A stretch of 36,871 nucleotides of DNA from Candidatus Rokubacteria bacterium GWA2_73_35 (GTDB taxonomy: Bacteria > Methylomirabilota > Methylomirabilia > Rokubacteriales > CSP1-6), in assembly GCA_001790205.1 (NCBI GenBank), contig MGBU01000238.1, forward strand, positions 1 through 36,871, written 5' to 3'. The notes beneath the pieces are model-generated. The model was given only the letters and a program-made list of their open reading frames with translations. It did not search any database and was not told the origin of the DNA. Shown here one piece after another: positions 4,203 to 34,914 of the stretch (its first letter is position 1; the number at the start of each line of letters is the position of its first letter). The translations under genes and the position numbers were made by a program.

Positions 4203-6524
4203 ATGCTGAACGTCGACAAGCTCTTCCCGCGGCTCTCGATCCGGGCCAAGCTGGTGGTCGCGTTCTGCTTTTTCGGCGTCGTCCCGGTGGCGGTCGTGGG
4301 GGGCTACGGCGCGCTCCATTCCTACATCCTGCTGAACGACGCGACCCGCGACCGCCTGAAGGCCGGCGTCGTCATGAAGGCCGAGGAGATCCAGCGGCTC
4401 CTGCGGGGCGTGCGTGAGGACGTGGTCTACCTGGCCGGGCTGCCGACGGTCGAGGCCCTCGCGAACCTGCCCCCGGGCGCCGGCGCCGAGCGTCACCACC
4501 TGGTCGCCCGGCTCCGCGACGAGTTCCTCTCGTTCTCCCGTGCCAGGAGCGTGTACCACCAGGTCCGGTTCATCGACGAGACCGGGCGAGAGATCGTCCG
4601 CGTCGACTTCGACGGCGAGCGGCCGCACCTCGTCGCCCCCGGGGCGCTGCAGACCAAGCGCGACCGCTACTACTTCACGGAGGCGATGGTGACGCCGCCC
4701 GGGAGTGTCTACGTCTCACCGATGGACCTGAACGTCGAGTACGGCGCCGTCGAGGTGCCGCCCCGGCCGATGGTCCGGTACGCCGTGGCCCTCCGGACCG
4801 CCCGGGGGGCGCCGCGCGGCATCGTCATCCTCAACCTGCACGCGTCGAGGATCCTGGGGCAGGTCCTTGCCCTCGGCCGGGAGCTCGGGAGCGTCTCGCT
4901 GGCCAGCTCGACCGGCCACTATCTCTCCCGCTCGGAGTGGGTCCGCGGGCCGACGGATGCGCCGTTCGCGCGCCGCCCCGAGGGGGTGGCGCAGGACTTC
5001 GCGCCCGCCCTCGCGGCAACCATCCTCGCGGGCACACCCGCGACGATCGCCGAGCCCGGCTTCGGCGGGCGCGTCGTCGCGTTCGCGCCGATCTTCCCGC
5101 GGCCGGACGCCGGCGCCGAGTTCTGGGTGCTCGCGCACGCCTACCGCAAGCGCGAGGTGCTCGCGTCGATCTGGTCGCTGCAGCTCGTGGTCGTGACCCT
5201 CGGCGCGGGCGTTCTGGGCGTGGCCGTCGTGCTCGGCGTCGTCGCCGCCCGTCACTTCACCCGGCCGATCACGGCGCTCAGCACCGCGGCGGAGGCCGTC
5301 GCGAGCGGCAACTACGCGCAGCGGGTCCGGGTCGAGACCAACGACGAGCTGGAGGACCTGGCGCGGCACTTCACCCGAATGGCGACACGGCTCGAGCACC
5401 GCGAGCGCGAGCTCCGGGAGGCGTCCGAGCGCGCGGAGCGGAAGGCGATGGAGTCGCAGGCGCTCTACGGGATCGGCACGGAGGTGCTCGGGCTCCTCGC
5501 GCTGCCGCGGATCCTCGATCGCGTCGCGGACAAGGCCCGCGAGCTGCTCCGCGCCGACGTCGCGATGCTGTGCCTCGCCACGCCGGAGCGGCCGCTCCGC
5601 CTCGGCGCCATGAGCGGCGCCACCGAGGCGCTGGGCCTGGCGCCCGGCGATCGCATCCCGGTCTGCGCGTGCGCGCAGGCCGGCTGCGTCGAGGTGCTCT
5701 GCCCGGCGGTCGTCGGCACGCCGTTCACGACGCACGTCGCCGTGCCGATGAAGAGCCGTGACCGCGTGGTCGGCGACCTCTGCGTGGCCTTCCTCGAGCC
5801 GCGCGCGCTCGGGCCCGACGAGCGGGAGTTCCTGACGGGCCTCGCGAATCTCGCGACGATCGCGATCGAGAAGGCCCGGCTCCACGACGAGGTCACCGAG
5901 CTGACCCGCCTCGAGGAGCGCGAGCGGATCGCCGCCGACCTCCACGACGGCATCATCCAGTCCATCTACGCGGCGGGGCTCGGGCTCGAGGAGTGCGTGC
6001 GTCTGGCCGACGAGGCGCCCGTCGCGATGCAGCGCCGGCTCGAGGAGCTGATCGACGCGCTGAACGTCGTGATCCGCGACGTCCGGAACTACGTCGTCGG
6101 ACTCGCGCCCGAGCGGCTTCAGGACAGAGACCTCTGCCAGGCGCTCGCCGATCTCGCTCGCGGTCTCTCGCTCAACGGGCTCCTCGAGCTCGAGCTGGAG
6201 CTCGAGCCCGGCGTCGAGGGGCGGCTCACGCCGGCGCAGACCGCCGAGCTCTACCACATCTGCCGCGAGGCGCTCACCAACATCGTCAAGCACGCGCGCG
6301 CCTCGCGCGTCGTCCTGAGCGTCGCGCGCGACGGCGACGCGCTCCGCGTCACCGTCGAGGACGACGGCGTCGGCTTCGAGGTCCCCGCGCGCCGGCAGGC
6401 CGGGCGGGGCCTGCGGAACATGACGGATCGGGCCCGCCGCCTCGGGGGCGACCTGGCGGTGGAAAGCCTGCCGGGCCGGGGCACGCGCATCACCGTGGCG
6501 ATCCCAGCGGAGGTCGCGGCGTGA
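4203..6524 (+). CDS. Membrane sensor histidine kinase (Cache-like periplasmic domain, HAMP, GAF, HisKA_3, HATPase; DevS/NarX-like)
   Basis: Two TM helices flanking an extracytoplasmic domain, HAMP (TRPITAL...NDELEDLARHF), H-box ERERIAADLHDGIIQ, EALTNIVKHA, DDGVGF, GRGLRNM. Confidence 0.9.
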   Translation: MLNVDKLFPRLSIRAKLVVAFCFFGVVPVAVVGGYGALHSYILLNDATRDRLKAGVVMKAEEIQRLLRGVREDVVYLAGLPTVEALANLPPGAGAERHHLVARLRDEFLSFSRARSVYHQVRFIDETGREIVRVDFDGERPHLVAPGALQTKRDRYYFTEAMVTPPGSVYVSPMDLNVEYGAVEVPPRPMVRYAVALRTARGAPRGIVILNLHASRILGQVLALGRELGSVSLASSTGHYLSRSEWVRGPTDAPFARRPEGVAQDFAPALAATILAGTPATIAEPGFGGRVVAFAPIFPRPDAGAEFWVLAHAYRKREVLASIWSLQLVVVTLGAGVLGVAVVLGVVAARHFTRPITALSTAAEAVASGNYAQRVRVETNDELEDLARHFTRMATRLEHRERELREASERAERKAMESQALYGIGTEVLGLLALPRILDRVADKARELLRADVAMLCLATPERPLRLGAMSGATEALGLAPGDRIPVCACAQAGCVEVLCPAVVGTPFTTHVAVPMKSRDRVVGDLCVAFLEPRALGPDEREFLTGLANLATIAIEKARLHDEVTELTRLEERERIAADLHDGIIQSIYAAGLGLEECVRLADEAPVAMQRRLEELIDALNVVIRDVRNYVVGLAPERLQDRDLCQALADLARGLSLNGLLELELELEPGVEGRLTPAQTAELYHICREALTNIVKHARASRVVLSVARDGDALRVTVEDDGVGFEVPARRQAGRGLRNMTDRARRLGGDLAVESLPGRGTRITVAIPAEVAA

Positions 6525-7171
6525 GGGCCCGGCGCGTCGGCGTGCTCATCGTCGACGACCACGAGGTCGTGCGCCTCGGCCTGCGCTCCCTCCTGGGCCG
6601 GGAAAAGGCGATCGAGATCGTGGGCGAGGCGGCGACGGCGGAGGAGGCGGTCGCGCAGGCCGAGCGCCTCCGGCCGACGGTCGTCGTCATGGACGTGCGG
6701 CTCCCCGACCGGAGCGGGATCGAGGCGTGCCGCGAGATCCGGGCGGCGGCGCCGGACACGCGGGTGATCATGCTCACGTCGTACGCCGACGACGAGGCCG
6801 TCTTCGCCTCGATCCTCGCCGGCGCCTCGGGCTACCTGCTCAAGCAGGCAGGGGGACTCGACCTCGTGCGCGCCATCGAGCGGGTCGCCGACGGCCAGTC
6901 GCTGCTCGACCCCGGGGTGACGGAGAAGGTTCTCGAGAAGGTCAAGCGGCTGGCGAGCGGCCAGCCCGACGAGGTCACGAGTCTCTCGCCCCAGGAGCAG
7001 AGGGTCCTCGCCCTCGTCGCCGAGGGCAAGACCAACAAGGAGATCGCGACCGCCCTGGGGCTCAGTGACAAGACCGTCAAGAACTACCTCTCCAACGTCT
7101 TCGACAAGCTCCACCTCTCGCGCCGGGCGGAGGCCGCCGCCTTCTTCGCCCGCCGCCGCCCCGCCGGCTAG
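6521..7171 (+). CDS. NarL/DevR(DosR)-family response regulator
   Basis: VLIVDDHEVVRLGL, VVVMDVRLP, GYLLK, LuxR-type HTH TNKEIA...SDKTVKNYLSNVFDKL. GTGA overlap with the kinase stop. Confidence 0.92.
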   Translation: MRARRVGVLIVDDHEVVRLGLRSLLGREKAIEIVGEAATAEEAVAQAERLRPTVVVMDVRLPDRSGIEACREIRAAAPDTRVIMLTSYADDEAVFASILAGASGYLLKQAGGLDLVRAIERVADGQSLLDPGVTEKVLEKVKRLASGQPDEVTSLSPQEQRVLALVAEGKTNKEIATALGLSDKTVKNYLSNVFDKLHLSRRAEAAAFFARRRPAG

Positions 7172-7334: not shown

Positions 7335-8060
7335 GTGAGAACCCTGGGGGCGCTCGTTCTCTCGGCGGTGCTGGCGGCACCGTCGCTCGCGGCCGGCTAC
7401 GACGTGGCGCCGGTCGCCGGTGGGGGCACGGTGGCGGGCAAGGTCTCGTTCAAAGGCGAGGCGCCGAAGCCCAAGCGGATGCTGATCACCAAGAACAAGG
7501 AGGTCTGCGGCGAAGGACAGCGGGAGATCGTCGAGGTGGCCGTCAAGGGCGGCGCGCTCGGGAACGCCGTGGTCGTCCTCGACGGCATCGCCAGGGGCAA
7601 GGCGTGGGCGCCACAGAAACCGCTCCTAGACCAGAAGGGTTGCCGGTTCATCCCGCCCCTGATGGTCGTCCGGAAGGGCGCGGACATCGACATCCTCAAC
7701 AGCGACCCGGTCCTGCACAACATCCACACCTACGAGATCATCGGCTCGGCGCGCCGCACCCTCTTCAACTTCGGCCAGCCGAACCAGGGGCAGACGCTCG
7801 GCAAGCCTGTCAACCTCCGCCGCGGCGAGTGGGTGAAGGTCGAGTGCGACGCCCACGACTTCATGCACGCGTGGATGTACGGGGCAGCCTCGCCGTACGT
7901 GGCCGTCACCGGCGAGGACGGCAGCTTCACGATCGGCGACGTGCCGCCCGGGAAGTACAAGATCCGCGCCCTGCATCCGGTCCTCGGCGCCAGGGAGGGT
8001 GAGGTGACGGTGACGGCGAAGGGCAAGGCGGAGATCTCGTTCGACTTCCCGGCGCGGTGA
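7335..8060 (+). CDS. Secreted cupredoxin-like protein with carboxypeptidase-regulatory-like beta-sandwich
   Basis: AGGAGG RBS at 7321-7326, GTG 7335, Sec signal peptide (..APSLA-A), LDQKGCRF, NSDPVLHNIH, KVECDAHDFMHAW (type-1 Cu-like H...C-x2-H-x2-M), TGEDGSFTIGDVPPGKY. Confidence 0.75.
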   Translation: MRTLGALVLSAVLAAPSLAAGYDVAPVAGGGTVAGKVSFKGEAPKPKRMLITKNKEVCGEGQREIVEVAVKGGALGNAVVVLDGIARGKAWAPQKPLLDQKGCRFIPPLMVVRKGADIDILNSDPVLHNIHTYEIIGSARRTLFNFGQPNQGQTLGKPVNLRRGEWVKVECDAHDFMHAWMYGAASPYVAVTGEDGSFTIGDVPPGKYKIRALHPVLGAREGEVTVTAKGKAEISFDFPAR

Positions 8061-8075
8061 GCGAGGAGGCTGGCC

Positions 8076-10262
8076 ATGGGCGGACGCGCCTCTGTCGGTG
8101 GGCTGATCGCCGCGTTCGGCTTCGTCCTCGCCGTCGGCGCCGCGCGGGCCGAGCCGCTCGCGCCGCTGCCGCCGCTCCCGGCGTCCCCGCCCGAGCAGGT
8201 GGCGCTCGGGAGGCTCCTGTTCTTCGACACGCGCCTGTCGGGCGACGCCTCGATCTCGTGCGCCTCCTGCCACGACCCCAGGAAGGCGTGGGGTGACGGC
8301 AAGCCGCTCTCGACCGGCTACCCCGGCGCCGAGTACTTCCGCAACGCGCAGACCCTCCTGAACGCGGCGCACTACCGGCGCAGCTACTGGGACGGGCGGA
8401 TGGACGGCCGCGACCTGCCGACGCTCGTCCGCGACCACCTGACCGAGCCGGCCCTCATGCAGGTCGACGGCCGGCTCTTCCCCGAGCGCCTCAAGCAGGT
8501 GCCGGAGTACGACGCGATGTTCCGGAGGGTCTTCGGCGGCGAGCCCTCGTTCGGGCGCTCGCTGAACGCGATCGCGGCCTTTGTCCGGACCCTCACCTCC
8601 CGCGGCGCCCCGCTCGACCGCTACCTCGAGGGTGACACCGCCGCGCTGAGCCCCGCGGCCCGGGACGGGTTGGCGTTGTTCCAGGGCAAGGCGGGCTGTC
8701 TCCGGTGCCACGACGGCCCGCTGCTCTCGGACCAGAAGTTCCACGCCCTCGGCGTCCAGGACAGCGCCGCGGTCTTCGGCGAGCCCCTGCGGCACATCAC
8801 CTTCCGGTGGTTCATGAAGACGCTCGGCACGCCGAACTACACGAATCTCAGGGAGGACGTGGGCCGGTACGCCGTGACCAAGGAGCCGCCGGACCGCGGC
8901 AGGTTCAGGACGCCGTCGCTCCGCGATGTCGCGCTGACGGCTCCGTACATGCACAACGGGACCCTCGCGACGCTCGAGGAGGTCGTGGAGTTCTACAACC
9001 GGGGCGGCGGCATCCATCGGAACAAGAGCCCGCTGCTGGCACCGCTCGGGCTCGGTGCCGCCGAGAAGAAGGCACTGGTGGAGTTCCTCGAGGCGCTGAC
9101 CGGCGAGCCCGTCGTCGTCGACCCGCTGGCGCCGCCCGAATACAAGCTCCGGGCTCTCGGCAAGGGCTCGCCCGCTCCCGCCGGGCTGGTCGCGGCCTCC
9201 ACGGGCACCGCGCAGTCCGGGAAGTTCCGGGCGCTCGGGCCGCTCGGCCCCGTGCCCGTGCCCCGGGACAACCCGATGTCGGATGCGAAGGTGGAGCTGG
9301 GCAAGTTCCTGTTCTTCGATCCGCGGCTCTCCGGCGACGTCTCGACCCCCTGCGTCGCGTGCCACAACCCCGAGGCGGGCTGGGGCGACGGCAGCGACGT
9401 CTCGCGCGGCTATCCCGGGACCCAGCACTGGCGCAACTCGCAGACGGTCCTGAACGCCGCGTACTACTTCAAGCTCTTCTGGGCCGGCGAGGTGACGAGC
9501 CTCGAGGCCCAGGCCGTCGCCGCGGCGACCGGCAACGTCGCCGGCAACGGCGACCCGATGATGATGGAGGAGCGCCTGCGCCAGATCCCGGAGTACGTCC
9601 GCCGCTTCAAGGCCGTGTTCGGCACCGAGCAGCCGAGGATCATGGACGCCTGGAAGGCGATCGCCGCCTTCGAGCGGACGCTCGTCTCGAAGCCCGAGCA
9701 GGTGCCCTTCGACCGGTTCGTGAAGGGCGACCCCAAGGCGATCACCGACGAGGCCAGGCGCGGCCTCGCGCTCTTCCTGGGCAAGGCCGGCTGCATCCAG
9801 TGCCACAACGGTCCGCTCCTCTCCGACGACGACTACCACGCCCTTGGCGTGCCGAAGAACCCGGTGTTCGAGGAGGACCCGCTCCGGCAGATCACGCTCC
9901 GCTTCCAGCACGTGATCCGCGGCGTCCCGGAAGAGCTCTACCGGGTCGCCGACCGAGATCTCGGCCTCTACTACACGACCAAGCGCGAGGCCGACAGGGG
10001 CAAGTTCAGGACCCCGGGGCTGCGGGAGCTCAAGTACACGGCGCCCTACATGCACAACGGCGCGTTCTTCACGCTGGAGGAGGTGCTCGACTTCTACGAT
10101 CAGGGCGGCGGGAACGACGCGAACAAGAGCCCGCTCCTCAGGCCGCTCAAGCTTACGGCGCAGGAGAAGAAGGACCTCCTGGCCTTCCTCCTCTCGCTCT
10201 CGAGCGACCAGCCGATCGTCGTGCCGGCGCCCCAGCTGCCCGAGTACGCGGTCGTGAAATAG
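8076..10262 (+). CDS. Tetraheme protein of two fused bacterial cytochrome c peroxidase/MauG-family units (IdrP1-IdrP2-like fusion)
   Basis: Signal peptide; unit 1 LGRLLFFDTRLS..CASCH..CLRCH..FRTPSLRDVALTAPYMHNG; Ala/Gly/Pro linker; unit 2 LGKFLFFDPRLS..CVACH..CIQCH..FRTPGLRELKYTAPYMHNG. Confidence 0.88.
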   Translation: MGGRASVGGLIAAFGFVLAVGAARAEPLAPLPPLPASPPEQVALGRLLFFDTRLSGDASISCASCHDPRKAWGDGKPLSTGYPGAEYFRNAQTLLNAAHYRRSYWDGRMDGRDLPTLVRDHLTEPALMQVDGRLFPERLKQVPEYDAMFRRVFGGEPSFGRSLNAIAAFVRTLTSRGAPLDRYLEGDTAALSPAARDGLALFQGKAGCLRCHDGPLLSDQKFHALGVQDSAAVFGEPLRHITFRWFMKTLGTPNYTNLREDVGRYAVTKEPPDRGRFRTPSLRDVALTAPYMHNGTLATLEEVVEFYNRGGGIHRNKSPLLAPLGLGAAEKKALVEFLEALTGEPVVVDPLAPPEYKLRALGKGSPAPAGLVAASTGTAQSGKFRALGPLGPVPVPRDNPMSDAKVELGKFLFFDPRLSGDVSTPCVACHNPEAGWGDGSDVSRGYPGTQHWRNSQTVLNAAYYFKLFWAGEVTSLEAQAVAAATGNVAGNGDPMMMEERLRQIPEYVRRFKAVFGTEQPRIMDAWKAIAAFERTLVSKPEQVPFDRFVKGDPKAITDEARRGLALFLGKAGCIQCHNGPLLSDDDYHALGVPKNPVFEEDPLRQITLRFQHVIRGVPEELYRVADRDLGLYYTTKREADRGKFRTPGLRELKYTAPYMHNGAFFTLEEVLDFYDQGGGNDANKSPLLRPLKLTAQEKKDLLAFLLSLSSDQPIVVPAPQLPEYAVVK

Positions 10263-10274
10263 GAGGCGCACCCC

Positions 10275-13547: not shown

Positions 13548-15542
13548 ATGACGCCTCGAGCGCGGGAGCGCCCGCGCGGCCGGACGCGCCGGACGGCCGC
13601 GAGCCTCGTCGCCTTCGCCTGCGTCCTGGCCGCGGCCGTCGCCCTGGCGGCCGGCCCGCCCGCGGCGGCCGCCGGCGGGGCCGCGGCGGCCGAGTACCGG
13701 AGCTTCTACGGGACCAGCGCGCGCCTCGTCGTCTGGATCGTCGCCGAGCTGCACCTGATGTTCGGCGCGTTCGTCCTCGGCGTGCCGATCTTCGCCTCGA
13801 TCGTCGAGGTCATCGGCTGGCGCGGCGGCGACCCACGCTACGACCGGCTCGCCCACGAGTTCACGGGGCTCCTCGCGGCCGCGTTCTCGACGACGGCGGC
13901 GTTCGGCGGGCTCCTGGTGTTCGCGCTGATCGGCCTCTACCCGCGGTTCATGACCTTCCTGACCTCGGTCTTCCACGAGACCTACTACGTCTACGCGCTC
14001 CTGTTCTTCGCCGAGGGCTTCACCCTCTATCTCTACTACTACGGCTGGGACCGGATGCGCGGGCGCCTGAAGGGGCTCCACGTCGCCCTCGGGATCCTCC
14101 TGAACGTCTGGGGCACGGTGCTGATGCTGATCGCGAACGCGTGGGTCGCCTACATGATGGCGCCCACCGGGATCGACAGGAAGACGCTGGAGTTCGTGGG
14201 GACCACCTGGCAGGCGGTGGCGAACCCTCTCTGGATCCCGCTCGCGATCCACCGCGTGCTCGGCAACGTCGCGTTCGGCGGCTTCATCGTCGGCGCGTAC
14301 GCGGCCGTCAGGTTCCTGGGCGCGCGCACCGAGGCGGCGCGGGCCCACTACGACTGGATGGGCTACGTCGGCAACTTCGTGGGCCTCGGCGCGCTGATCC
14401 CGCTGCCCTTCGCGGGCTACTACCTGGGCCGGGAGATCTACTCCACGAGCGCGGTCATGGGCAACAACATGATGGGCGGCGCCTTCTCGTGGACCTTCAT
14501 CCTCCAGGCCGTGCTGATCGGGATCCTGTTCATCGGCGGCAACTACTATCTCTGGATCGGCATGGGCCGCATCGAGGGCGCCGAGCGCTACCGGCCGTGG
14601 GTCAAGTACATCAACCTGGTGCTCCTCCTCTCCTTCGCCGTCTGGCTCACGCCGCGCAACGTCCCGCTGACGGGCGAGGAGCAGACGGCCCTGGGCGGCC
14701 AGTTCCACCCGCTGCTCAAGTACCTCGGGCTCATGTCGGCGAAGAACGCGGCGGTGAACTTCATCATCCTCAGCACGTTCTTCTCCTTCCTCCTCTACCG
14801 CCGCGGCAACAAGGGACGCCCGCGCCCCTTCGCCGCGCACGGGCGCGTGGGCCTGCTCGTGCTGACCGCGGGCGCCGCCGTCGCGATCTCGATCCTCCTC
14901 TGGTACGCGCGCGCCCTGCTCACCCTCGACCCGAAGACGCTCGACCTCACCGCGGCCCAGGCCGGCTACTTCAAGCCGCCCGCGTACCTCCTGCTCGGCC
15001 AGGCCGTCATGGTGCTCGTGACCGCGACGCTCGCCCTCCGCGATCGGGGGACGCTCGCCCAGGCGCTCTTCTTCGCCTCCACGACGCTGGCGTCGGTCTT
15101 CGTGCTCGGCGTCTACGGCTTCGTCGTCATGGAGCGCGCGAACCCCTTCCTCCGGAACGTGGCGGTCGCCCAGTGGCTCATGGTGATGGTGTGCCTCCTC
15201 TGGAACACGGTGCTCGATGTCCTCGTGTTCCGCGGCGCCGAGACCGCGGGCGGCATCCGCTGGGGCCGGATGCCCGCGCGCTCGCAGTACACGCTGATTC
15301 TCCTCTGCGTGACGATCGTGATGCTGATGGGGCTCATGGGCTTCATCCGCTCGGGCCTGCGCGAGGACTGGCACGTCTACGGCGTCCTCCAGGACACCTC
15401 GCCGTGGGCCTGGACCCCGACCACCGCGTACATGACCCGGGTCGTCGGCGCGATCGTGCTCGGCTTCCTCGGCCTGGTGGCCTTCGTCTTCTGGCTCGCG
15501 GGGCTCGGCGAGAAGAAGGACCACGGCGGGGCGCCCGCGTGA
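13548..15542 (+). CDS. Cytochrome bd-like oxidase subunit I (CydA-like, Nitrospira/anammox bd-like type)
   Basis: Many TM helices; AELHLMF (heme His), FFAEGF, AIHRVLGNV (heme His), MGFIRSGLREDWHVYG equivalent to the CydA GRQPW motif. No recognisable Q-loop. TATAGT -10 at 13534-13539. Confidence 0.8.
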   Translation: MTPRARERPRGRTRRTAASLVAFACVLAAAVALAAGPPAAAAGGAAAAEYRSFYGTSARLVVWIVAELHLMFGAFVLGVPIFASIVEVIGWRGGDPRYDRLAHEFTGLLAAAFSTTAAFGGLLVFALIGLYPRFMTFLTSVFHETYYVYALLFFAEGFTLYLYYYGWDRMRGRLKGLHVALGILLNVWGTVLMLIANAWVAYMMAPTGIDRKTLEFVGTTWQAVANPLWIPLAIHRVLGNVAFGGFIVGAYAAVRFLGARTEAARAHYDWMGYVGNFVGLGALIPLPFAGYYLGREIYSTSAVMGNNMMGGAFSWTFILQAVLIGILFIGGNYYLWIGMGRIEGAERYRPWVKYINLVLLLSFAVWLTPRNVPLTGEEQTALGGQFHPLLKYLGLMSAKNAAVNFIILSTFFSFLLYRRGNKGRPRPFAAHGRVGLLVLTAGAAVAISILLWYARALLTLDPKTLDLTAAQAGYFKPPAYLLLGQAVMVLVTATLALRDRGTLAQALFFASTTLASVFVLGVYGFVVMERANPFLRNVAVAQWLMVMVCLLWNTVLDVLVFRGAETAGGIRWGRMPARSQYTLILLCVTIVMLMGLMGFIRSGLREDWHVYGVLQDTSPWAWTPTTAYMTRVVGAIVLGFLGLVAFVFWLAGLGEKKDHGGAPA

Positions 15543-16525
15543 GACGGCCGTTCCTCGGCGTCGCCGTCTTCACGGTCGTCGTCGTGCTCGCGATCGCGGC
15601 CGTCGGCGAGATGATCACGCGCGTCTCCGGCGAGGGCGGGCGCCGGCCCGCCGTGGCCGTCAGCGCCGGGACCATCACCCCCGAGGCGGGCGAGACGGTC
15701 TTCTGGGGCAAGGGCAAGTGCTCGACCTGCCATGCCGTCGGCACGCGGGGCGGCGCGGTGCGCGGCCCCAACCAGGGCGAGGGGGGGCCGCTGGGCTTGC
15801 CGATCGGCGCGCGCGCCGGGGAGCGGGCCCGCGAGCGGGCGAGGGCGACGGGCAAGCCGTACACGGCGACGGACTACCTCGTGGAGGCGCTGGCGGACCC
15901 GGGCGCCTACGTCGTGCAGGGCTACAAGAACGAGATGCCGAACCCGTTCCAGCCGCCGATCCGCCTCGGCTCCGACGAGGTCCGCGCCGTGATCGCGTAC
16001 CTCCAGTCCCTCGGGGGCACGGTGGATCTCGCCGCCATCAAGCTCCCCGCCGGGCTCGAGGCGAAGTCCCGCGCGGCGGCGGAGTGGAAGCCCTACGTCG
16101 CCGGCGACAGCGAGAAGGGCGAGAAGCTCTTCTTCGACGTCGACTCGAGCGCGGGCTGCGGCAAGTGCCATCGCGTGGGCACGCGCGGCGGCAGCGTCGG
16201 ACCCGAGCTGACCACGGTGGCCGGCACGCGGGATCCCGTGTTCATCGTCGAGTCGATCCTGGAGCCCTCGAAGGTGATCGCCTCGGGCTACGAGACCGTG
16301 CTGATCATCACGAAGAGCGACCAGTACGTCACCGGCATCGTCAAGAGGGAGGACGCGACGACGGTCGAGGTCGCCGACAGCCAGGGGAGGATCCAGCAGG
16401 TCGCCAGGGCCGACATCAAGCAGCGGACGCCCCAGACCGTCTCGATGATGCCGGGGAACTTCAAGGAGATCCTCACGGTCGAGGAGTTCCACGACCTGCT
16501 CGCGTTCGTCCTGGGGCTCCGGTGA
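15539..16525 (+). CDS. Membrane-anchored diheme c-type cytochrome
   Basis: GTGA overlap with the upstream stop; N-terminal TM; CSTCH...NEMP and CGKCH..VGPELT...SMMP (His/Met hemes). Confidence 0.85.
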   Translation: MRRPFLGVAVFTVVVVLAIAAVGEMITRVSGEGGRRPAVAVSAGTITPEAGETVFWGKGKCSTCHAVGTRGGAVRGPNQGEGGPLGLPIGARAGERARERARATGKPYTATDYLVEALADPGAYVVQGYKNEMPNPFQPPIRLGSDEVRAVIAYLQSLGGTVDLAAIKLPAGLEAKSRAAAEWKPYVAGDSEKGEKLFFDVDSSAGCGKCHRVGTRGGSVGPELTTVAGTRDPVFIVESILEPSKVIASGYETVLIITKSDQYVTGIVKREDATTVEVADSQGRIQQVARADIKQRTPQTVSMMPGNFKEILTVEEFHDLLAFVLGLR

Positions 16526-18855
16526 GTCGGCCGCGCCGCCTGCCCCTCTTCTGGAACGTCGTCATCGCGCTGGCGATCGTCTGGGCGCTCCTCGCGTGGG
16601 GCCTGCCCTGGCTCGGGATGTGGGTGACGGGCGGGCCGCGGCCGCTCCCCGTGCCGGGCGTCGTCCGCCTGATCTACCTGCTGCTCGCCCTCGTCGGCGC
16701 GGCGGTCTACGTGACGATCAGCGACGAGTCGCTCCGCGAGTTCCTCCGGCCACCGGTCGCGGGCTTGCGCGGGCCCGACCCGGCCGCGCCGCACGCGCGC
16801 TGGCGCAGGCTCGCGCGCCTGGTCGTCCTCGTCCTCCTTCCGCTGCTCGCGGGCGCCGCCGTCTACGCCCGCACGGCGCCGACGGCCCAGAGCCCGACCA
16901 TCTTGCGGATCCAGCACCCGACGATCCCGGGGGCGTACGAGAAGCGCTCGAACCCGTTCCGTGGGCGGTCCGACGAGGCCGCGATCCTCGCCGAGGGGCG
17001 GGAGATCTTCCAGATCAACTGCCGCCCCTGTCACGGCGACGCCGCCGACGGCGCCGGGCCGATGGCCTGGGGCTTTCGGCTCAAGCCCGCGAATTTCACC
17101 GACGCCGGCACGATCGCCACCGTCGTCGAGTCGTACGCCTTCTGGCGCGTCACCGTGGGCGGGCCCGGCCTGCCGCCGGAGGCGACGCCGTGGGACTCGG
17201 CGATGCCGACCTGGCGCCACGACCTCACCGACGAGCAGAAGTGGAAGGCCGTGATGGCCGCCTACGACCTGGCCGGCGTCGAGCCGCGCAAGCCGGAGAG
17301 GCTCGGCTGGCTCCATCCGTCCGGCGCCTGGGCGCAGACGACGCCCGCGGGGACGCCCGAGGGCCTCGCGCGCGGCAAGCGGATCTACGCGAAGCGCTGC
17401 CAGGCCTGCCACGGCGAGAAGGGCGACGGGCTCGGCCCCGTGGCGCCCTACCTGAACCCGCGGCCGCGCGACTTCACGCTCGGCGCGTTCAAGTTGAGGA
17501 CCACGGGCTCGGGCGAGCCGCCGACGGACGAGGACCTCTTCCGCGTCGTGACGCGCGGCGTCCCCGGCACCGCGATGTCGGGCTGGACGACGCTCTCGGC
17601 CGACGAGCGCTGGCAGGTGATCGCATACCTCAAGACGTTCAGCACCGCGTTCCAGGAGCCGCGCACCGTGGTGAGCGCGGGGCGCGGGCCCGCGGCTTCG
17701 CCGGAGCTGCTCGCCCGGGGCCGGCAGGTCTACCAGAAGGCCAAGTGCTGGGAGTGCCACGGCGAGAGCGGCCGGGGCGACGGGCCCGCGGCGCCGACCC
17801 TGAAGGACGACGCGAAGAACACCATCCGCGCCGCCAATCTCCAGAAGGGCTGGCTCATGAAGGGCGGCCGCGAGGCCGCGGACATCTTCATGCGCTTCTC
17901 CACCGGGGTCGACGGCACCCCCATGCCCTCGTACGCCGACTCGCTCTCCGAGGACGAGCGCTGGGCCCTCGCCCACTACGTGACGTCGCTCCAGACGACG
18001 GAGGAGCCGGGCGCGGAGGTCGTCCTGCGGGCCACCCGGGTCGCGGGCCCATTGCCCGGCGACCCCGCCGATCCCCGCTGGCGGGCGCAGCCCTTCCTCG
18101 CCGTGCCGCTCGCGGGCCAGGTCCTCGCCAGGCCGCGCTGGCAGAACCACGCCGTCGACGTCGTCAGCATCCGCGCCCTCTACGACGAGCGCGCGATCGC
18201 GTTCCTGCTCGAGTGGGACGACCGCTTCGAGGACGTCGAGCACCGGCCCGGTCCCGAGCCGGCGCTCGCCCCGTGGACCTACCCCAGGATCGACCTCGAC
18301 CCCGAGCGCCGGGAGCGGCTGCGGGACGCGATCCGGCTCCAGTTCCCGGTGGCGATCCCGACGGGGCCCGAGCGCCCGCACTTCTTCCTCGGGAACCCCG
18401 GGCGCCCGGTCGCGCTCTGGCACTGGCGCGCCGACGCGAACGGGCGGGGCGACGCCGCCGTCGTCAAGGAGCGCGCCGAGGGGTGGGAGAAGCCCGTCGT
18501 CGAGCTGCCCGCGGCGAGCCAGGACGTGAGCGCCCGCGGGGCGTGGAAGGACGGCCGCTGGCGCGTCGTCCTGACGCGCCCGCTCGGGCCGAAGGACCCC
18601 GCGAGCGACGTGGCCTTCGAGCCCGGCCGCCTCGTGCCCTTCGCGGTCCACGCCTGGGACGGCTCGAACGGCGAGCGCGGGCTCAGGATGTCGCTCTCGT
18701 CCTGGAGCTTCGTCGTCCTCGACGCGCCCCCGCCGGCGACCGTCTACGTCTACCCGCTGCTGGGCGTCGGCCTCGTCGGCGTCGCGGAGTGGTGGCTCGT
18801 CAGGCGCGTGCGGCGGCGGGCGCCTCAGGCCGACGCGGCCGCGCGCGACGCGTAG
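16522..18855 (+). CDS. Membrane-bound triheme c cytochrome fused to an EB_dh (DMSO-reductase type II gamma-like) domain
   Basis: GTGA overlap; three N-terminal TMs; CRPCH, CQACH (PRPRDFT), CWECH; C-terminal EB_dh-like fold (IRALYD..IAFLLEWDD, DAIRLQFP, WKDGRWRVVLTRPL, FAVHAWDGSNGERG) and a C-terminal TM. Confidence 0.82.
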   Translation: MSRPRRLPLFWNVVIALAIVWALLAWGLPWLGMWVTGGPRPLPVPGVVRLIYLLLALVGAAVYVTISDESLREFLRPPVAGLRGPDPAAPHARWRRLARLVVLVLLPLLAGAAVYARTAPTAQSPTILRIQHPTIPGAYEKRSNPFRGRSDEAAILAEGREIFQINCRPCHGDAADGAGPMAWGFRLKPANFTDAGTIATVVESYAFWRVTVGGPGLPPEATPWDSAMPTWRHDLTDEQKWKAVMAAYDLAGVEPRKPERLGWLHPSGAWAQTTPAGTPEGLARGKRIYAKRCQACHGEKGDGLGPVAPYLNPRPRDFTLGAFKLRTTGSGEPPTDEDLFRVVTRGVPGTAMSGWTTLSADERWQVIAYLKTFSTAFQEPRTVVSAGRGPAASPELLARGRQVYQKAKCWECHGESGRGDGPAAPTLKDDAKNTIRAANLQKGWLMKGGREAADIFMRFSTGVDGTPMPSYADSLSEDERWALAHYVTSLQTTEEPGAEVVLRATRVAGPLPGDPADPRWRAQPFLAVPLAGQVLARPRWQNHAVDVVSIRALYDERAIAFLLEWDDRFEDVEHRPGPEPALAPWTYPRIDLDPERRERLRDAIRLQFPVAIPTGPERPHFFLGNPGRPVALWHWRADANGRGDAAVVKERAEGWEKPVVELPAASQDVSARGAWKDGRWRVVLTRPLGPKDPASDVAFEPGRLVPFAVHAWDGSNGERGLRMSLSSWSFVVLDAPPPATVYVYPLLGVGLVGVAEWWLVRRVRRRAPQADAAARDA

Positions 18856-19715: not shown

Positions 19716-20548
19716 GCCTCGAGCGGGGCGCCGGCCGGCCCGCAGGCCATCGGCGTCGCGTCGGGCGCCGTGGAGCGGAGGCTGAGAAAGGACGGGCCGA
19801 CGGCGACGCCCGCGCGCCCGCACTCGGCGGTGACGACCCCGACGAGCAGGCCGCCGAGCACACCGTAGAACCCATCGGGGTCGAGTCGCGCGAGCGCGCC
19901 GCCGAAGGCGGGCGCCCAGCGGCCCAGGTGGTCGCGGAGGAACAGGCGCGTGGCGCGGCGCGCCTCGTCGCCGAGCGGCGCGTCGCCGAGCGCCGAGGCG
20001 CGCGCCTCGCGCCGCGCCAGGACGAGGAGGAACTCGCACTCGCAGGCGATGTGGTCGGGGCGCTCGCGGGCGCCGGGATCGAGCACGAGGCCGAAGGCGC
20101 GGAAGAACGCCCCGAGGTCGCTCATCTCGCGCTGAGGCGCCCAGAGCGAGTCCTCGCCGTACTCGGTCTCGTAGGGCGACGCCGCGCCGCGCGCGGTGTG
20201 GCCGAACAGGCGGCCGTATGCGAGGCCGAGCGCCTCGCCCGACGGCGCCGGCGCGACGGCGAGCGCCCGCACCAGCGGCGCGAGCGCGGTCCCGTCCGCG
20301 GCGTCGAGCGGCGCGGCCGCCTCGGCGAGCGCGCCCGCCCCCTCGGCCCGTGCGAGCCGCGCGACCGTCTCCTCGGTCGGTGGGCAGAAGCCAAGCACCA
20401 GCGCCTCCCAGAGGGCGCTTCGACAGAGCAAGAGATCCACCGCTTCGAGCGCGGGCTTTGCCCGCGCCTTCGACGGGGGGAGGTTCGGAAGGGGGGCGGA
20501 GCCCCCCTCCGAGCTAGATCGAGTTGGCGTGCCTGCTCGATCGGACAT
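19712..20548 (-). CDS. TorD/DmsD-family molybdoenzyme maturation chaperone
   Basis: YGRLFG, SPYETEY, ERPDHIACECEFL, FLRDHLGRW. Start uncertain: the N-terminus crosses a hairpin element, and an in-frame GTG at 20440 is an alternative. Confidence 0.85.
   Translation of the reverse strand: MSDRAGTPTRSSSEGGSAPLPNLPPSKARAKPALEAVDLLLCRSALWEALVLGFCPPTEETVARLARAEGAGALAEAAAPLDAADGTALAPLVRALAVAPAPSGEALGLAYGRLFGHTARGAASPYETEYGEDSLWAPQREMSDLGAFFRAFGLVLDPGARERPDHIACECEFLLVLARREARASALGDAPLGDEARRATRLFLRDHLGRWAPAFGGALARLDPDGFYGVLGGLLVGVVTAECGRAGVAVGPSFLSLRSTAPDATPMACGPAGAPLEA
20475..20514. repeat. G6-leader + GC hairpin (REP-like element, copy 2) immediately after the nxrB stop
   Basis: GGGGGG-AG then stem GTTCGGAAGGGGGGC / GCCCCCCTCCGAGC with a GGA loop and one bulged A. 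Confidence 0.55.
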
Positions 20549-21779
20549 GGATCGGCTCCTCGACCTTCGTCCGGAACAGCTCCTCGCCGCGCCGCCCGTA
20601 GGCGATCACCGTGTCGTCGTGGACCGTGACCTTCCTGCCGCGCAGCGTGCCCTCGTACACCTTCGGACCCTCGACGACCTTGTAGCCGAAGATGATCTTG
20701 TTCGACCGCCGGAAGAGCTGGAGCACGGCGGTCAGCTCGCGGTCGGGCTTCTCGTAGCGCTCGAGCGCCGCGTCCACGCCGGGGCCGAACATCTGCCGGA
20801 GGTAGGGGCGCGGCACCCAGCGCGGGGGAATGTAGTAGCCGTTCGGCTCGGTGCCGAACTGCGGGTAGAGCGGCAGGGCCACCTTCGCCACATGCACGAG
20901 GTAGTAGAGCGGGTTCTGCCGGTCCTCGGCCCAGGTGCCGTCCGGGTTCAGCCTGACGAGCCCCTGGAGCCGGATCTGGCCGATGCACGCCGCCATGCAG
21001 CGCGTCTCGAGCGGCACGCCGCCGCTCTCCGGGTCCCTGCCCTCGACGCGCGGGTAGCAGGCGACGCACTTCTCCGACACCCGCGTGTTGCCGCGGTACA
21101 TCGACTTCTTGTACGGGCACGCCTCGACGCACTTCCGGTAGCCGCGGCACTCGGCCTGATCGATGAGGACGATCCCGTCCTCGGGCCGCTTGTAGATCGC
21201 CTTGCGCGGGCAGGCGGCCAGACAGGCCGGATACTGGCAGTGGTTGCAGATGCGCGCGAGATAGAAGAACCAGGTCTTGTGCTCCGGCAGCGACTCGCCG
21301 GTCCTGTGGTACTCGCGGGGCTTGCCGCGCTCGCCGACGGGGTTGTCCTCGTAGATGTTCGGCGAGTTCCACTCGTCGTCGGCCGGCAGGTAGCCGAGCA
21401 CGCGCGCGCTGTCGGGGGTCAGCATGCGTGGGGCCTCGAAGATCGTCTGCCCCTCGAACCGACCCCAGGGGCCCCGAGGGTCGCCGGCGGGCGCGCCGGT
21501 CCAGCGCTGGCCGTCCGGGTTTGCGCGCTCGAGCAGCTCCAGGATCTTCATGTCCCAGAACATCGGGTAGCCGCCGTAGGGCTTCGTCTCGACGTTGGCC
21601 CACCACATGTGCTCCTGGCCCTTCGAGAAGGTCCACGTGGACTTGCAGGCCATCGTGCAGCTCTGGCAGGCGATGCAGCGGTTGATGTTGAACACGAACG
21701 CGAACTGCGCGCGGGGATACGCCGCATCGTACGTGTAGGTCATCTCCCGGCCGAGCTGCCAGTTGTGGACGCGCGCCAT
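20514..21779 (-). CDS. nxrB: Nitrite oxidoreductase beta subunit (periplasmic Nitrospira/anammox type), Fe-S protein
   Basis: N-terminus VHNWQLGREM..QFAFVFNINRCIACQSCTMACKSTW..KGQEHMWWANVETKPYGGYP; CNHC..PACLAAC, CRGYRKCVEACPYKK, EKCVACYPR...CMAACIG; PLYPQFGTEPNGYYIPPR. Confidence 0.9.
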   Translation of the reverse strand: MARVHNWQLGREMTYTYDAAYPRAQFAFVFNINRCIACQSCTMACKSTWTFSKGQEHMWWANVETKPYGGYPMFWDMKILELLERANPDGQRWTGAPAGDPRGPWGRFEGQTIFEAPRMLTPDSARVLGYLPADDEWNSPNIYEDNPVGERGKPREYHRTGESLPEHKTWFFYLARICNHCQYPACLAACPRKAIYKRPEDGIVLIDQAECRGYRKCVEACPYKKSMYRGNTRVSEKCVACYPRVEGRDPESGGVPLETRCMAACIGQIRLQGLVRLNPDGTWAEDRQNPLYYLVHVAKVALPLYPQFGTEPNGYYIPPRWVPRPYLRQMFGPGVDAALERYEKPDRELTAVLQLFRRSNKIIFGYKVVEGPKVYEGTLRGRKVTVHDDTVIAYGRRGEELFRTKVEEPIHVRSSRHANSI

Positions 21780-21782
21780 ACG

Positions 21783-22076
21783 CTAGTCCCTCCCGGTCAC
21801 TTCGGCGGCCGGCGGCCCCGTGTGGGCGCCGAACACGCCGACGCACTCCCGGACGATCGCGGTGACTTCGGTCTCCCCGAGCAGTCGAAGAGCGCGGTGG
21901 GCGCCGGCGTAGAACGGCGACCGGAACAGGCCGAGGATCCGCGGCGCGTCGAATCCCATGCGCGCGAACTCCTCGGCGAACACCCAGGCCATGTCCCGCG
22001 TCGCCTCCAGCTCCGCCGGAAGCGCCACGCCCACCAGGACGCCGGGATCGGTCGGATCCGGGTCGCCGTACGGCAC
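21783..22076 (-). CDS. Small hypothetical protein between nxrA and nxrB
   Basis: 97-aa ORF filling the gap exactly (1 bp after the nxrA stop, 3 bp before the nxrB start); protein-like composition (DPDPTDP..GV..MAWVFAEEFARMG..LFRSPFY). Confidence 0.7.
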   Translation of the reverse strand: MPYGDPDPTDPGVLVGVALPAELEATRDMAWVFAEEFARMGFDAPRILGLFRSPFYAGAHRALRLLGETEVTAIVRECVGVFGAHTGPPAAEVTGRD

Positions 22077-22077
22077 G

Positions 22078-25000: not shown

Positions 25001-25515
25001 CACGCGATCTGGACGAACTCGTCCTGGCCGCGCGCGTCGAACATGTACTTCGTGCGGAGCTCGGGCGTGAGCTCGGGGAAGCCGGCGTCGGCCCACGCCT
25101 TCCAGCCCCTGCGCACGATCGGGTGCTTGAGGCGGTAGGGCCCGTAGAGCACCCGGTGGAACGTGTAGCCCTTGGCGCACTGGCGCGGGTTCCAGTTCGC
25201 GGTGGCGTGGTTGCCGTCGAGGTCGGCATAGGTCTGGTAGTCGTAGGTGTTGCCCAGCCGCGTGACGACGCCGTTGCGCACGAAGGCTCGCACGCGGCAG
25301 GCGTGGGTGTCGTTGGGCGAGCAGACCCAGTCGAAGGTGCGGTCGTAGGCGTACTGGTCGCGGTAGATCTTCTCCCAGTCGCGGGCCACCGAGCCCGCCA
25401 GGGGGTTCTGGTCGGGATCGGCCGCCGCAAGGAGCCTGAGCGGCAGCGCGAGCTCGGTCGCGGCCGCCGTGCCGGCGCCGAGGCCGAGCCAGCGGAGGAA
25501 TTCACGTCGCTCCAT
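22078..25515 (-). CDS. nxrA: Nitrite oxidoreductase alpha subunit, Tat-exported (Nitrospira/anammox-type NXR; direction of catalysis unknown)
   Basis: GAGGAGG RBS, Tat signal MERREFLRW, FS0 motif CSPNDTHACRVRAFVRNG...WNPRQCAKG, Mo-Asp motif NYTWHGDQAPGHP, HREGPEATPYLPNVIVS, TPKTRHRVHS, YGSQQSVTR, NTVPKETLVK; 1145 aa. Confidence 0.9.
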   Translation of the reverse strand: MERREFLRWLGLGAGTAAATELALPLRLLAAADPDQNPLAGSVARDWEKIYRDQYAYDRTFDWVCSPNDTHACRVRAFVRNGVVTRLGNTYDYQTYADLDGNHATANWNPRQCAKGYTFHRVLYGPYRLKHPIVRRGWKAWADAGFPELTPELRTKYMFDARGQDEFVQIAWEDAFACIAKALVKIAESYSGEDGKARLLAQGYQPEMVEAMGGAGTRTIKMRGGMGLLGVIGKYGMYRLNNSLALLDAAIRRVGSKDAKAGRNWSNYTWHGDQAPGHPWVHGLQASDCDFNDLRFSKLIIMDGKNLVENKLTDSHWFIECMERGAKIVVIAPEYGPPSTKADYWIPIRPQTDAALWLGVTRLMLENKWYDEGFVRAFTDFPLLVRTDTLRRLRAHEVFPGYRTTLAPDGPSVKVQGLTAEQHARLGDYVVWDAQAGALRALTRDDVGARMAAKGIRPALDGTWKVKLVDGAEVEVATLWTLYGTHLKDYDLDTVVEITQAPGDLIRQLAQDIGTMRPVAIHQGEGINHWFHATEMNRAAYLPLMLTGNIGKPGAGCHTWAGNYKAALFQGSKETGPGFKGWVAEDPFQPNLDPGAHGRDVEAHAYTKDEEPAYWNHGDLALIVDTPKYGRRNFTGDTHMPTPSKAIIFTNVNLINNAKWAYGVIKNVNPKVEMIVAIDIQMTASIEYADIALPANSWLEFEGLEVTASCSNPFLQIWKGGIPPVFDSRDDLMILAGIAKALADVTGDRRFADYFKFALAGGREVYIQRLLDTSTTTAGYRLADIMAGKYGPRGGALMLFRTYPRIPFWEQVHDSEPFHTDTGRLHAYADVPEAIEYGENFIVHREGPEATPYLPNVIVSSNPLVRPDDYGIPLTAEHWDERTIRNVKLPWSRVKGTKNFLWEKGYHFYCLTPKTRHRVHSGWSNVDWHMLYDSNFGDPYRLDKRAPSVGEHQLHMNPQAARDLGINDGDYVYVDANPADRPYLGARPDDPFYRVSRCMLRVKYNHAYPYDCVMMKHAPFIATEKSVKAHETRPDGRALSENTGYQANLRYGSQQSVTRNWHMPMHQTDSLFHKAKVFMGFIFGGEADNHALNTVPKETLVKVTKAEDGGLGGRGVWAPATTGFTPDNENEFMKRYIAGDLYRKA

Positions 25516-25536
25516 CCGCTTCCTCCTCAGAGCGAG

Positions 25537-27336: not shown

Positions 27337-27373
27337 AGTGCCAACCCTCTTGGGACTGGAACATACTTCACTA

Positions 27374-27390
27374 ACTGAATATCATTCAGT
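27374..27390 (+). promoter_or_regulatory. Probable TetR-family operator overlapping the -10 element of the acyl-CoA operon
   Basis: AT-rich perfect inverted repeat ACTGAAT-ATC-ATTCAGT covering TATCAT (27380-27385), 1 bp before the GTG start; a TetR gene ends this operon. Confidence 0.7.
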
Positions 27391-27391
27391 C

Positions 27392-28543: not shown

Positions 28544-28577
28544 ACGCTCGAGCGCCCGGCACTCACGGTGACCGGGT

Positions 28578-28619
28578 GGGGGGTGTCGGGGAGGAGCGGC
28601 GCTCGCTCCCCCCGACGCC
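28578..28619. repeat. G6-leader + GC hairpin (REP-like element, copy 3)
   Basis: GGGGGG-T then stem GTCGGGGAGGAGCG / CGCTCCCCCCGAC with one bulged A; intergenic. Confidence 0.55.
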
Positions 28620-28628
28620 GATCAGACC

Positions 28629-29483: not shown

Positions 29484-29496
29484 CGGAGGCGCAGCC

Positions 29497-32704: not shown

Positions 32705-32719
32705 GCGGGCGCTCTCCTG

Positions 32720-33760: not shown

Positions 33761-33761
33761 C

Positions 33762-34901: not shown

Positions 34902-34914
34902 TCCGCCTGCTGGA

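Follow-up and report, generated by a model that had tools for sequence, protein, structure and literature searches.

Iodate reductase (Idr) clusters encode two peroxidase-like proteins, IdrP2 and IdrP1, together with a Rieske subunit, IdrB, and a molybdenum (Mo) subunit, IdrA. The published gene order is idrP2, idrP1, idrB, idrA (PMC10989891; this and the other reports are cited here from excerpts of their text), the order of the accessions of Azoarcus sp. DN11 agrees with it (PMC10149662), and, besides Denitromonas iodatirespirans IR-12, Pseudomonas sp. SCT and strain DN11 are further characterised iodate reducers with IdrP2 and IdrP1 (PMC8692401, PMC10149662). Native-gel bands with Idr activity hold IdrA, IdrP1 and IdrP2 together, for which the authors suggest a complex, and the excerpts describe the function and make-up of the IdrP1/IdrP2 part as unclear (PMC10149662). 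Here we describe a locus in which the two peroxidase-like genes are a single open reading frame (ORF). It lies at 8076-10262 on the forward strand of contig MGBU01000238.1 (36,871 nucleotides (nt), the whole of which is called the window below) in the metagenome-assembled genome (MAG) of Candidatus Rokubacteria bacterium GWA2_73_35, assembly GCA_001790205.1. An initial reading of the letters of the window, referred to here as the original prediction, had proposed that this ORF joins two dihaem peroxidases ahead of an AioBA-like pair.

We consider it highly probable that idrP2 and idrP1 of an idr-type cluster are genuinely fused in frame here, in a lineage-specific event, and we extend the same confidence to the origin and the P2:P1 product described below. 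The gene represents a natural fused version of an accessory pair that is already known, with a function that we infer. The product would act as a 1:1 P2:P1 unit attached to IdrAB with iodate as substrate, and the module may remove or use reactive by-products (H2O2 or HOI in published models) or relay electrons. The value of the locus lies in the recurrence of such fusions, which bears on the P2:P1 unit, in MauG-type residues that call the peroxidase label into question, and in the traps that it sets for annotation.

Orthologues of IdrP2 and IdrP1 in one reading frame

The ORF begins with ATG and encodes 728 residues. Pfam CCP_MauG matches the product over two stretches (280 bits), CxxCH motifs lie at residues 62, 208, 426 and 573, and the sequences SYWDGR and LFWAGE mark residues 103 and 467. 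In 15-residue Kyte-Doolittle windows strong hydrophobicity is found only at the N terminus (2.27, in windows starting at residues 5-9) and the maximum in the linker region is 0.78; the cleavage site of the signal peptide, at residue 25, was assigned by eye. The two halves are 47% identical to one another (162/345). In an AlphaFold 2 (AF2) model of the fusion the predicted local distance difference test score (pLDDT) drops below 50 at residues 373-380, and the two 10-residue blocks of residues 361-380, about nt 9156-9215, average 71 and 47. The scans for ORFs, Pfam domains, motifs and hydrophobicity thus bear out the original prediction of a 728-residue product with a single signal peptide, four CxxCH motifs and two clearly non-identical CCP/MauG units, and the flexible linker that it had placed at about 9160-9240 coincides closely with the region of low model confidence. 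The MAG, from an uncultured organism (281 contigs, 3.54 Mb, 77% complete), gives two CCP_MauG matches in all, both of them inside this ORF; the window, which is one entire contig, has a G+C content of 66-79%.

The protein was split at the linker and each half was placed among the units of related loci. These loci were obtained by scanning an alignment of the Mo subunit against species-representative genomes and keeping the best 80 of 582 relatives, which are 61-81% identical; the characterised iodate reducer D. iodatirespirans IR-12 is locus L077 of this set. Five unlinked peroxidases from three related genomes served as the outgroup, and units of fewer than 300 residues were removed from all trees. 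In a FastTree phylogeny of 144 rows the N half falls in a 65-row clade of first genes (support 100) and the C half in the clade of second genes. An IQ-TREE analysis under a mixture model, with 26 of the 81 loci and four outgroup peroxidases (OG_L087, on a long branch, was dropped), recovers the first-gene clade with a Shimodaira-Hasegawa-like approximate likelihood ratio (SH-aLRT) of 99 and the second-gene clade with one of 94, and in each of them a half of the window protein is joined by one gene of Denitromonas. Clade-specific motifs are likewise common to the window and Denitromonas: the N unit has YWDGR...TLVRD..TE and P2 has WDGR..TLVRD..TE, while the C unit has FWAGE..SLEAQA..VAGNGD and P1 has FWAG..SLEAQA..VAGNGD; the original prediction had already pointed to YWDGR and FWAGE. 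By these phylogenetic and motif comparisons the N half is of the idrP2 type and the C half of the idrP1 type, and the orthology of each half is established. The 'IdrP1-P2 fusion' of the original prediction was therefore right as to its two components, both IdrP orthologues being present, and wrong as to their order, which by the published gene order is P2 followed by P1 (PMC10989891, PMC10149662); its statement that strain IR-12 encodes two separate peroxidase-like genes holds at L077.

The junction itself shows how the two genes differ from those of their nearest relatives. In both unit trees the window protein and a 99% identical twin (P0003) are surrounded by split relatives (L014, L002, L001, L004, L010, L008 and others), indicating that this fusion arose independently, and among the matches listed the closest fused protein outside its 90% identity cluster is 61% identical. 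In the split relatives idrP2 ends in ...LGQN and is followed by a TGA stop, GGAG and the ATG of idrP1, whose signal peptide ends in ...GALGQA and leads into PRVPALGPLP. The window reads ...LGKGSPAPAGLVAASTGTAQSGKF... and ...LGKGSPAPAGLVAASTGTAQSGKFRALGPLGP at this point, and when the DNA is aligned with that of the relatives just one gap, about 50 nt long, opens in the window. Lost in this gap are the TGA, the ribosome-binding site, the ATG and some 14 codons of the signal peptide, and the gap puts the remaining idrP1 sequence into the idrP2 frame. Across the gene boundary, then, roughly 50 nt were deleted, and with them went the stop of idrP2 and, from idrP1, its ribosome-binding site, its start and the opening half of its signal peptide; the remainder of the signal-peptide coding region was turned into part of the flexible linker. 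The outcome would be a single Sec-exported tetrahaem protein, a covalently joined version of the P2:P1 heterodimer that is encoded directly before idrB and idrA. The C unit, without an export signal of its own, would reach the periplasm and gain its c-type haems only within the fused chain.

Similar fusions are found elsewhere. We examined 80 genome loci, 15 metagenome loci, four further genome regions and the window, and both units are visible in 78 of these, always in the order P2-P1 (78/78). Seven of the 78 are fused and 56 are split in different frames, while in 14 the two open segments share a frame and are separated by a single stop and in one they share a frame with more than one stop between them. 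Within the related genome set both units can be seen in 64 of 80 loci, 60 with two genes directly before the Rieske and Mo genes and four with a fused ORF (L023, L058, L062 and L074); a metagenome locus (L096) and a locus of a Burkholderiales genome (L182) are also fused. The seven fused loci have six different linkers that are unrelated in sequence, none with a hydrophobic core, and B and A follow the fused gene in all seven. In a protein collection the 120 best full-length matches listed are all tandem proteins, with 92-100% query coverage and 46-99% identity, of which 72 carry four CxxCH motifs and 48 carry five; they make up many separate fused groups, with halves that belong to the P2 and P1 clades. 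A FastTree phylogeny of 384 rows implies 12 and 15 changes between the fused and the split state, numbers that, given many weakly supported forks, indicate only 'several'. A metagenome scan with the fused protein found at least one fused locus (L096) and at least eight split ones, and gives no frequency estimate; 63 of its 80 loci hold only one distant single-unit relative and no A subunit. As judged from these trees and linkers, the window fusion is one of several independent events, a variant rather than a singular oddity. The literature searched yielded no report of a fused idrP, although the neighbourhood figures and tables of PMC8692401 may show fused genes.

Several arrangements met in the course of this survey are recorded here in their own right. 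Two tandem proteins, P0022 (742 residues) and P0024 (738 residues), have the swapped order, with the P1 type first and the P2 type second. Nine P2-P1 tandems of about 1000 residues (P0058, P0073, P0081, P0084, P0099, P0100, P0109, P0117 and P0120) have an N-terminal region with many WD40/beta-propeller Pfam entries; their source names them Elusimicrobiota, and eight lie on a contig of 194,892 bases and P0073 on one of 121,616 bases. The Burkholderiales genome G196 has two idr-type clusters, one fused (L182, with an open frame of 774 residues) and one split (L185). The 14 loci with a shared frame and a single stop are L183, L184, L185, L038, L041, L048, L051, L063, L064, L076, L080 and L093-L095, in which one base change would yield a read-through fusion; the matches of L183 and L184 contain TGA stops, five for G084 and one for G373. 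Finally, five Chloroflexota/Dehalococcoidia loci (L026, L029, L032, L039 and L047) have a single peroxidase-like unit that forms its own clade outside P2 and P1, and the frame of this unit ends 36 nt before the match to the Mo subunit, apparently without an intervening Rieske gene.

Recurrent natural single-chain versions are genetic evidence for a 1:1 P2:P1 unit, and structural models point the same way. The AF2 model of the fusion has a pLDDT of 92.4 and a predicted template modelling (pTM) score of 0.90, an overall confidence that is not expected were both units floating freely. For mature IdrP2 and IdrP1 of Denitromonas, a model of the complex reaches an ipSAE interface score of 0.88, against 0.00 for the best of three controls; this mark is reached by 58 of 80 solved complexes and by two of 110 mismatched pairs, counts that are only a rough calibration because our own alignments were fed to the model. 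The runs agree in at least 98% of contacts with a partner pLDDT of at least 91. In the modelled interface an insertion peculiar to Idr (in P2 about residues 261-276, in P1 about 261-281) packs against a helix at about residues 152-170 of the other chain, and the C-terminal tails are also involved. Dihaem peroxidases are homodimers, and those with solved structures are multi-chain entries. The 'obligate P1-P2 heterodimer' of the original prediction is thus backed, as far as pairing goes, by independent fusions and by the complex model, and 'obligate' stays an inference. A single-chain P2-P1 protein would in any case be a convenient construct for expression, spectroscopy and structure work.

Alternative readings of the locus

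Of the alternatives, the one that keeps appreciable weight, although we regard it as unlikely, is that the enzyme encoded downstream is an arsenite oxidase or another oxyanion reductase instead of an iodate reductase, with the fused protein serving that chemistry. The fused ORF ends 12 nt ahead of the Rieske gene, and the Mo subunit that follows passes the NCBIfam AioA model TIGR02693 (452.9 bits, cut-off 359.05), as the Rieske subunit passes the AioB model (Table 1). Relatives bear the public names arsenite oxidase or arsenate reductase (azurin), and the window has neighbours that are absent from Denitromonas (a cupredoxin, a CydA-like protein and cytochromes). Against this, the score class and the span of the match are those of Idr. 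The window subunit covers positions 1-751 of the 806 of TIGR02693, and in score classes drawn from 251 Burkholderiales genomes the AioA-type genes (n=10) reach 999.5-1305.5 bits, nine covering all 806 positions and one being cut by a contig end, whereas the Denitromonas gene (432.7 bits) and four of the five other Idr-type genes, with scores of 354-436 bits, stop at model position 751-752; the sixth Idr-type gene, G075, scores 450.2 bits over positions 2-806. The Mo subunit is 62% identical to IdrA of Denitromonas (547/887), and its best match among solved structures, arsenite oxidase, reaches only 303 bits. A tree of A subunits separates 28 Idr-type from 10 AioA-type rows (support 100) and places the window beside its split relatives inside the Idr-type clade, which is spanned by proteobacterial and planctomycete genes.

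Motifs and synteny also favour Idr. In Azoarcus DN11 the [3Fe-4S] motif of IdrA is CX2CX3C, and IdrB has the Rieske motif CXHX18CX2H along with a signal for twin-arginine translocation (Tat) (PMC10149662); the A and B subunits of the window match these motifs, including the Tat signal, B having been read by eye, and C29, C32 and C36 of the Mo subunit are invariant. Peroxidase-like genes are reported missing beside aioA, and P2-P1-B-A synteny, which the window has, distinguishes Idr from Aio (PMC8692401). On the sequence and synteny criteria of that report, in its excerpted form, the locus is classed as an idr cluster, and Idr activity is predicted for it. The same report sets a minimum score of 640 on an IdrA profile hidden Markov model. 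The AioBA-like pair in an idr context of the original prediction is therefore present, with an A subunit that stands apart from AioA. In the same tree the Mo subunit of L196 (G075:C37) branches off basally in the Idr-type clade, with 450 bits over the full length of the AioA model and 928 bits against the window subunit.

A further alternative is that the ORF is continuous but that its units are made separately, with the C unit translated from an internal start at the CTG of Leu371 (9186) or the ATG of Met401 (9276). Public products of 358, 363 and 333 residues (P0244, P0246 and P0247) in the same 90% cluster comprise the C half only and begin at just these residues, Leu371, in the linker, being read as Met. 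We think such a start very improbable: no GGAGG-like site precedes either codon, and a C unit made in this way would be without a signal peptide, the hydrophobicity maximum of the linker being far below that of the N terminus. A c-type cytochrome left unexported receives no haem. In the C unit every haem motif and every clade-specific residue is intact. The sequences of the C-half-only records, one of which is on a contig of 36,871 bases, also occur as ORFs of 728 or 733 residues in other sources.

That the open frame is an artefact of assembly or sequencing, a lost stop or a collapsed indel in the MAG, is rejected as scarcely credible, even though the nearest relatives have two genes and the MAG is incomplete and fragmented. 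Logan contigs of four runs from four other studies were aligned to positions 8000-10400. Contigs X11 (8963-9389) and X4 (9141-9389) span the entire linker with no differing letter and no gap, and no insertion or deletion relative to the window is listed in any of the four runs, so that the open linker of the original prediction, with neither stop nor frameshift, stands; in runs X7 and X13 the listed pieces leave about 9196-9251 unspanned. Skips of 63-1376 nt in the contig alignment have sides of only 20-25 letters and are read as cross-matches to the paralogous half or to other organisms, with no evidential value. The window contains no N letters. Metagenomes of groundwater, soil and sediment from 12 studies contain the allele in 20 rows, three of these rows perhaps being the source itself, and of the 30 members of the 90% protein cluster the eight full-length, independently assembled variants compared (728-757 residues) all keep the frame, the most divergent being 91% identical with differences in both units and the linker. 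Moreover, the junction differs from that of the relatives by a deletion of about 50 nt and not by a single-base change.

The weakest alternative, a recent duplication of one peroxidase gene within the lineage in place of a fusion of two old paralogues, can draw on the 47% identity of the halves over 345 residues but is rejected as virtually without a chance, because each half is closer to a different split gene (65-66% identity for the N half, 78% for the C half), the P2 and P1 clades stand apart with the support given above, and forcing the halves together as sisters, the grouping that the original prediction had named as its own refutation, costs 211 log-likelihood units (lnL) and is excluded by the approximately unbiased (AU) test (p-AU 1.5e-6).

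Some points weigh against reading the locus as an in-frame idrP2-idrP1 fusion whose product works with an iodate reductase. The fused polypeptide is known here from its DNA, and the public C-half-only products of 333-363 residues indicate that some pipelines miss the fused gene. Iodate is proposed as the substrate from 62% identity and synteny, and no characterised member of this Methylomirabilota/Nitrospinota branch was found in the literature searched. The AF2 model of the fusion was judged on its scores, and the fused chain may have an interface other than that of the heterodimer model. The score of the P2-P1 complex, for which the models covered the P2-P1 pair and three controls, may reflect a likeness to solved homodimeric peroxidases. 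Lastly, the nine Elusimicrobiota tandems cannot all adjoin one idrBA pair, and the tandem module may therefore serve outside idr clusters and is perhaps unrestricted to them.

Haem sites and gene neighbourhood

Canonical dihaem peroxidases have Met as the axial ligand of the electron-transfer haem, a distal His as loop ligand, and Gln and Glu as catalytic residues of the peroxidatic pocket. When the MauG chain stretch 256-296 is aligned with the N unit, Tyr307 falls on position 294, where MauG has a Tyr that we take to be a haem ligand; a PDB title naming the variant 'Y294H-MauG' was found. Among the split units, 58 of the 59 for P2 and 58 of the 60 for P1, Denitromonas included, have Tyr in this column, and three of the five outgroup peroxidases have Met. 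The position of the distal His is Tyr in both window units. At the Gln and Glu columns, both residues of which are present in all five outgroup peroxidases, the N unit has Leu and Leu and the C unit Gln and Ala, and all 60 split P1 units retain the distal Gln. Both window units conserve the Trp that lies between the haems. By these residues neither unit is a canonical CcpA, and the two are non-equivalent, a distal Gln occurring only in the P1 unit. The MauG-type pattern suggests that the label 'cytochrome c peroxidase' and a model of detoxification alone deserve a direct test.

The pattern does not make the units members of the MauG or MbnH families. These are the best NCBIfam models for each half, but both halves fall far below the curated cut-offs (MauG TIGR03791, 210.5 and 219.4 bits against 443.85; MbnH TIGR04039, 208.2 and 224.7 bits against 362.85), and such membership is rejected. 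The whole fusion does pass the MbnH model, at 428.4 bits, only through the sum of its two units. No mau or mbn genes were found among the scanned ORFs of the window, and no text linking idrP1 or IdrP to MauG was found in the literature searched.

A bolder proposal, which we put forward as speculative and rather unlikely in its entirety, is that IdrP2 and IdrP1 are not H2O2 scavengers but pair obligately as an asymmetric tetrahaem heterodimer, MauG-like with His/Tyr ligation, which works as part of the Idr complex, only P1 having a reactive distal pocket and P2 serving it as an electron relay. High-valent haem states might then oxidise or reduce HOI/I-, or act on IdrAB or on the cupredoxin encoded upstream. 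If this were true, the repeated independent fusions, including the type with swapped order, would be the genomic footprint of obligate pairing.

The same features have consequences for annotation. Fused genes are called inconsistently, with 728 residues in some records and 333-363 in others, and automatic naming is at risk, since the fusion passes the MbnH cut-off by summing and the A and B subunits are auto-named arsenite oxidase. Surveys of iodate reduction in groundwater and soil that rely on gene counts or names could therefore miss or mislabel such loci. The original prediction had warned that screens requiring two peroxidase genes would misclassify this locus, which the C-half-only products in its own cluster make plausible. 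An 'incomplete operon (idrP1,B,A)' is mentioned for another Methylomirabilota MAG in the excerpts of PMC10989891.

The features of the window are collected in Table 1. Directly upstream of the fused gene lies that of an exported 241-residue protein. A Foldseek search with its model (pLDDT 92.3) finds amicyanin, plastocyanin and pseudoazurin (E about 1e-4 to 3e-5, target-normalised template modelling (TM) score 0.62-0.72). His128, Cys171, His174 and Met177, with the pattern C-x2-H-x2-M, are invariant in 20 homologues, and a Pfam search of this protein with E up to 5 gave no cupredoxin match and just a weak C-terminal beta-sandwich. A homologue stands directly before the first peroxidase gene in 35 of the 67 related loci with enough upstream sequence, and is absent there in Denitromonas. 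From its modelled fold the protein is a candidate redox partner, and it could be a fifth conserved idr gene. Downstream of idrA, the 664-residue CydA-like protein is matched by Cyt_bd_oxida_I over its first 294 residues only. The CydA-like/cytochrome set follows idrA in L023 (fused) and L080 (split) and in none of the other 78 related loci, and it is a possible electron-supply module. The second molybdoenzyme operon belongs to the type II DMSO-reductase family and scores far under every curated cut-off (best 344.7 against 984.75).

Table 1. Positions of the fused gene, its parts and the neighbouring genes in the 36,871-nt window
Feature	Position	Strand	Remarks
Sensor histidine kinase (HAMP, GAF, HisKA_3) and LuxR-type response regulator	4203..7171	+	both common to L014 and L080
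Upstream gene, 241 aa, exported; cupredoxin fold and C-terminal beta-sandwich	7335..8060	+	fold search, homologue alignment
Shine-Dalgarno-like GAGGAGG	8063..8069	+	6 nt ahead of the ATG at 8076, read from the sequence
Sec-type signal peptide, aa 1-25, ...VGAARA/EP (slash marks cleavage), the only one in the protein	8076..8150	+	hydrophobicity scan; pLDDT about 50 for aa 1-20
N unit, aa 26-357, IdrP2 type	8151..9146	+	CxxCH at aa 62 and 208; W105, Y82, Y307
Tyr307 codon	8994..8996	+	aligned with MauG chain position 294 and with Met of MacA (...vkiMgsa)
Linker, aa 358-395 (38 residues)	9147..9260	+	first part left over from the idrP1 signal-peptide coding region; disordered at aa 373-380
C unit, aa 396-728 and stop codon, IdrP1 type	9261..10262	+	CxxCH at aa 426 and 573; W469, Y446, Y674; distal-pocket Gln of CCP retained
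Tyr674 codon	10095..10097	+	C-unit counterpart, same alignment column as Tyr307
idrB-like Rieske subunit, 183 aa	10275..10826	+	Tat motif SRRAFL, CTH-x18-CPLH; Pfam Rieske; TIGR02694 124.1 bits (cut-off 95.65)
idrA-like molybdopterin/[3Fe-4S] subunit, 889 aa	10840..13509	+	C29-x2-C32-x3-C36
CydA-like membrane protein, cytochrome c with two CxxCH, multi-cytochrome c with EB_dh (haem-b) domain	13548..18855	+	starts of the last two uncertain
Second molybdoenzyme operon, convergent on the idr operon	20514..27225	-	alpha 1145 aa, Fe-S beta 421 aa, cytochrome c-EB_dh-type gamma fusion 562 aa
Fatty-acid oxidation genes	27338..35760	+	two acyl-CoA dehydrogenases, AMP-binding ligase, enoyl-CoA hydratase, zinc alcohol dehydrogenase, TetR regulator

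Comparison with known systems

Taken one at a time, the two units find their best fold and sequence matches among the canonical dihaem peroxidases of Shewanella (3o5c), Geobacter (MacA, 4aal) and Nitrosomonas (1iqc), with Foldseek E of 1e-22, a target-normalised TM score of 0.81-0.87, 31-33% identity and phmmer scores of 152-161 bits; in the ranking by fold 6e1c and MauG come next. Two CxxCH motifs per unit and a Trp between the haems are common to these peroxidases and the window units. In contrast to them, the window units have Tyr for Met and Tyr for the distal His and no catalytic Glu, and the N unit is also without the Gln. MauG (PDB 3l4m and others), like the window units, has Tyr at 294 and no distal His. 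Of the solved chains only 6e1c, a MauG-like protein 'associated with microbial copper homeostasis', can be aligned with each half from one end to the other, and the ...FY..GG motif is common to it and the halves.

Among complete enzymes, AioBA (PDB 1g8k and 4aay) is the nearest solved structure to the downstream pair, with a Rieske and a Mo/[3Fe-4S] subunit encoded in the same order, B then A, as in the window. Unlike AioBA, the A subunit of the window belongs to a separate clade, has about one third of the score on the AioA model, and is accompanied by attached peroxidase-like units.

The other fused P2-P1 proteins, from Phycisphaerae (L023), Planctomycetaceae (L074), Gimesia (L058 and L062), L096 and L182, share the order of the window and are followed by B and A, but have linkers unlike that of the window and occupy separate branches in both unit trees. 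The Gimesia type differs further in an additional N-terminal part with a fifth CxxCH motif. The closest characterised system is that of Denitromonas IR-12, in which IdrP2 and IdrP1 fall in the same paralogue clades, stand in the same place directly before idrB and idrA, and have in common with the window units the Tyr/Tyr substitutions as well as an insertion, about 25 residues long, that separates the haem domains. There they are encoded by two genes, each with its own signal peptide, whereas the window encodes one polypeptide with one signal peptide and a linker of 38 residues.

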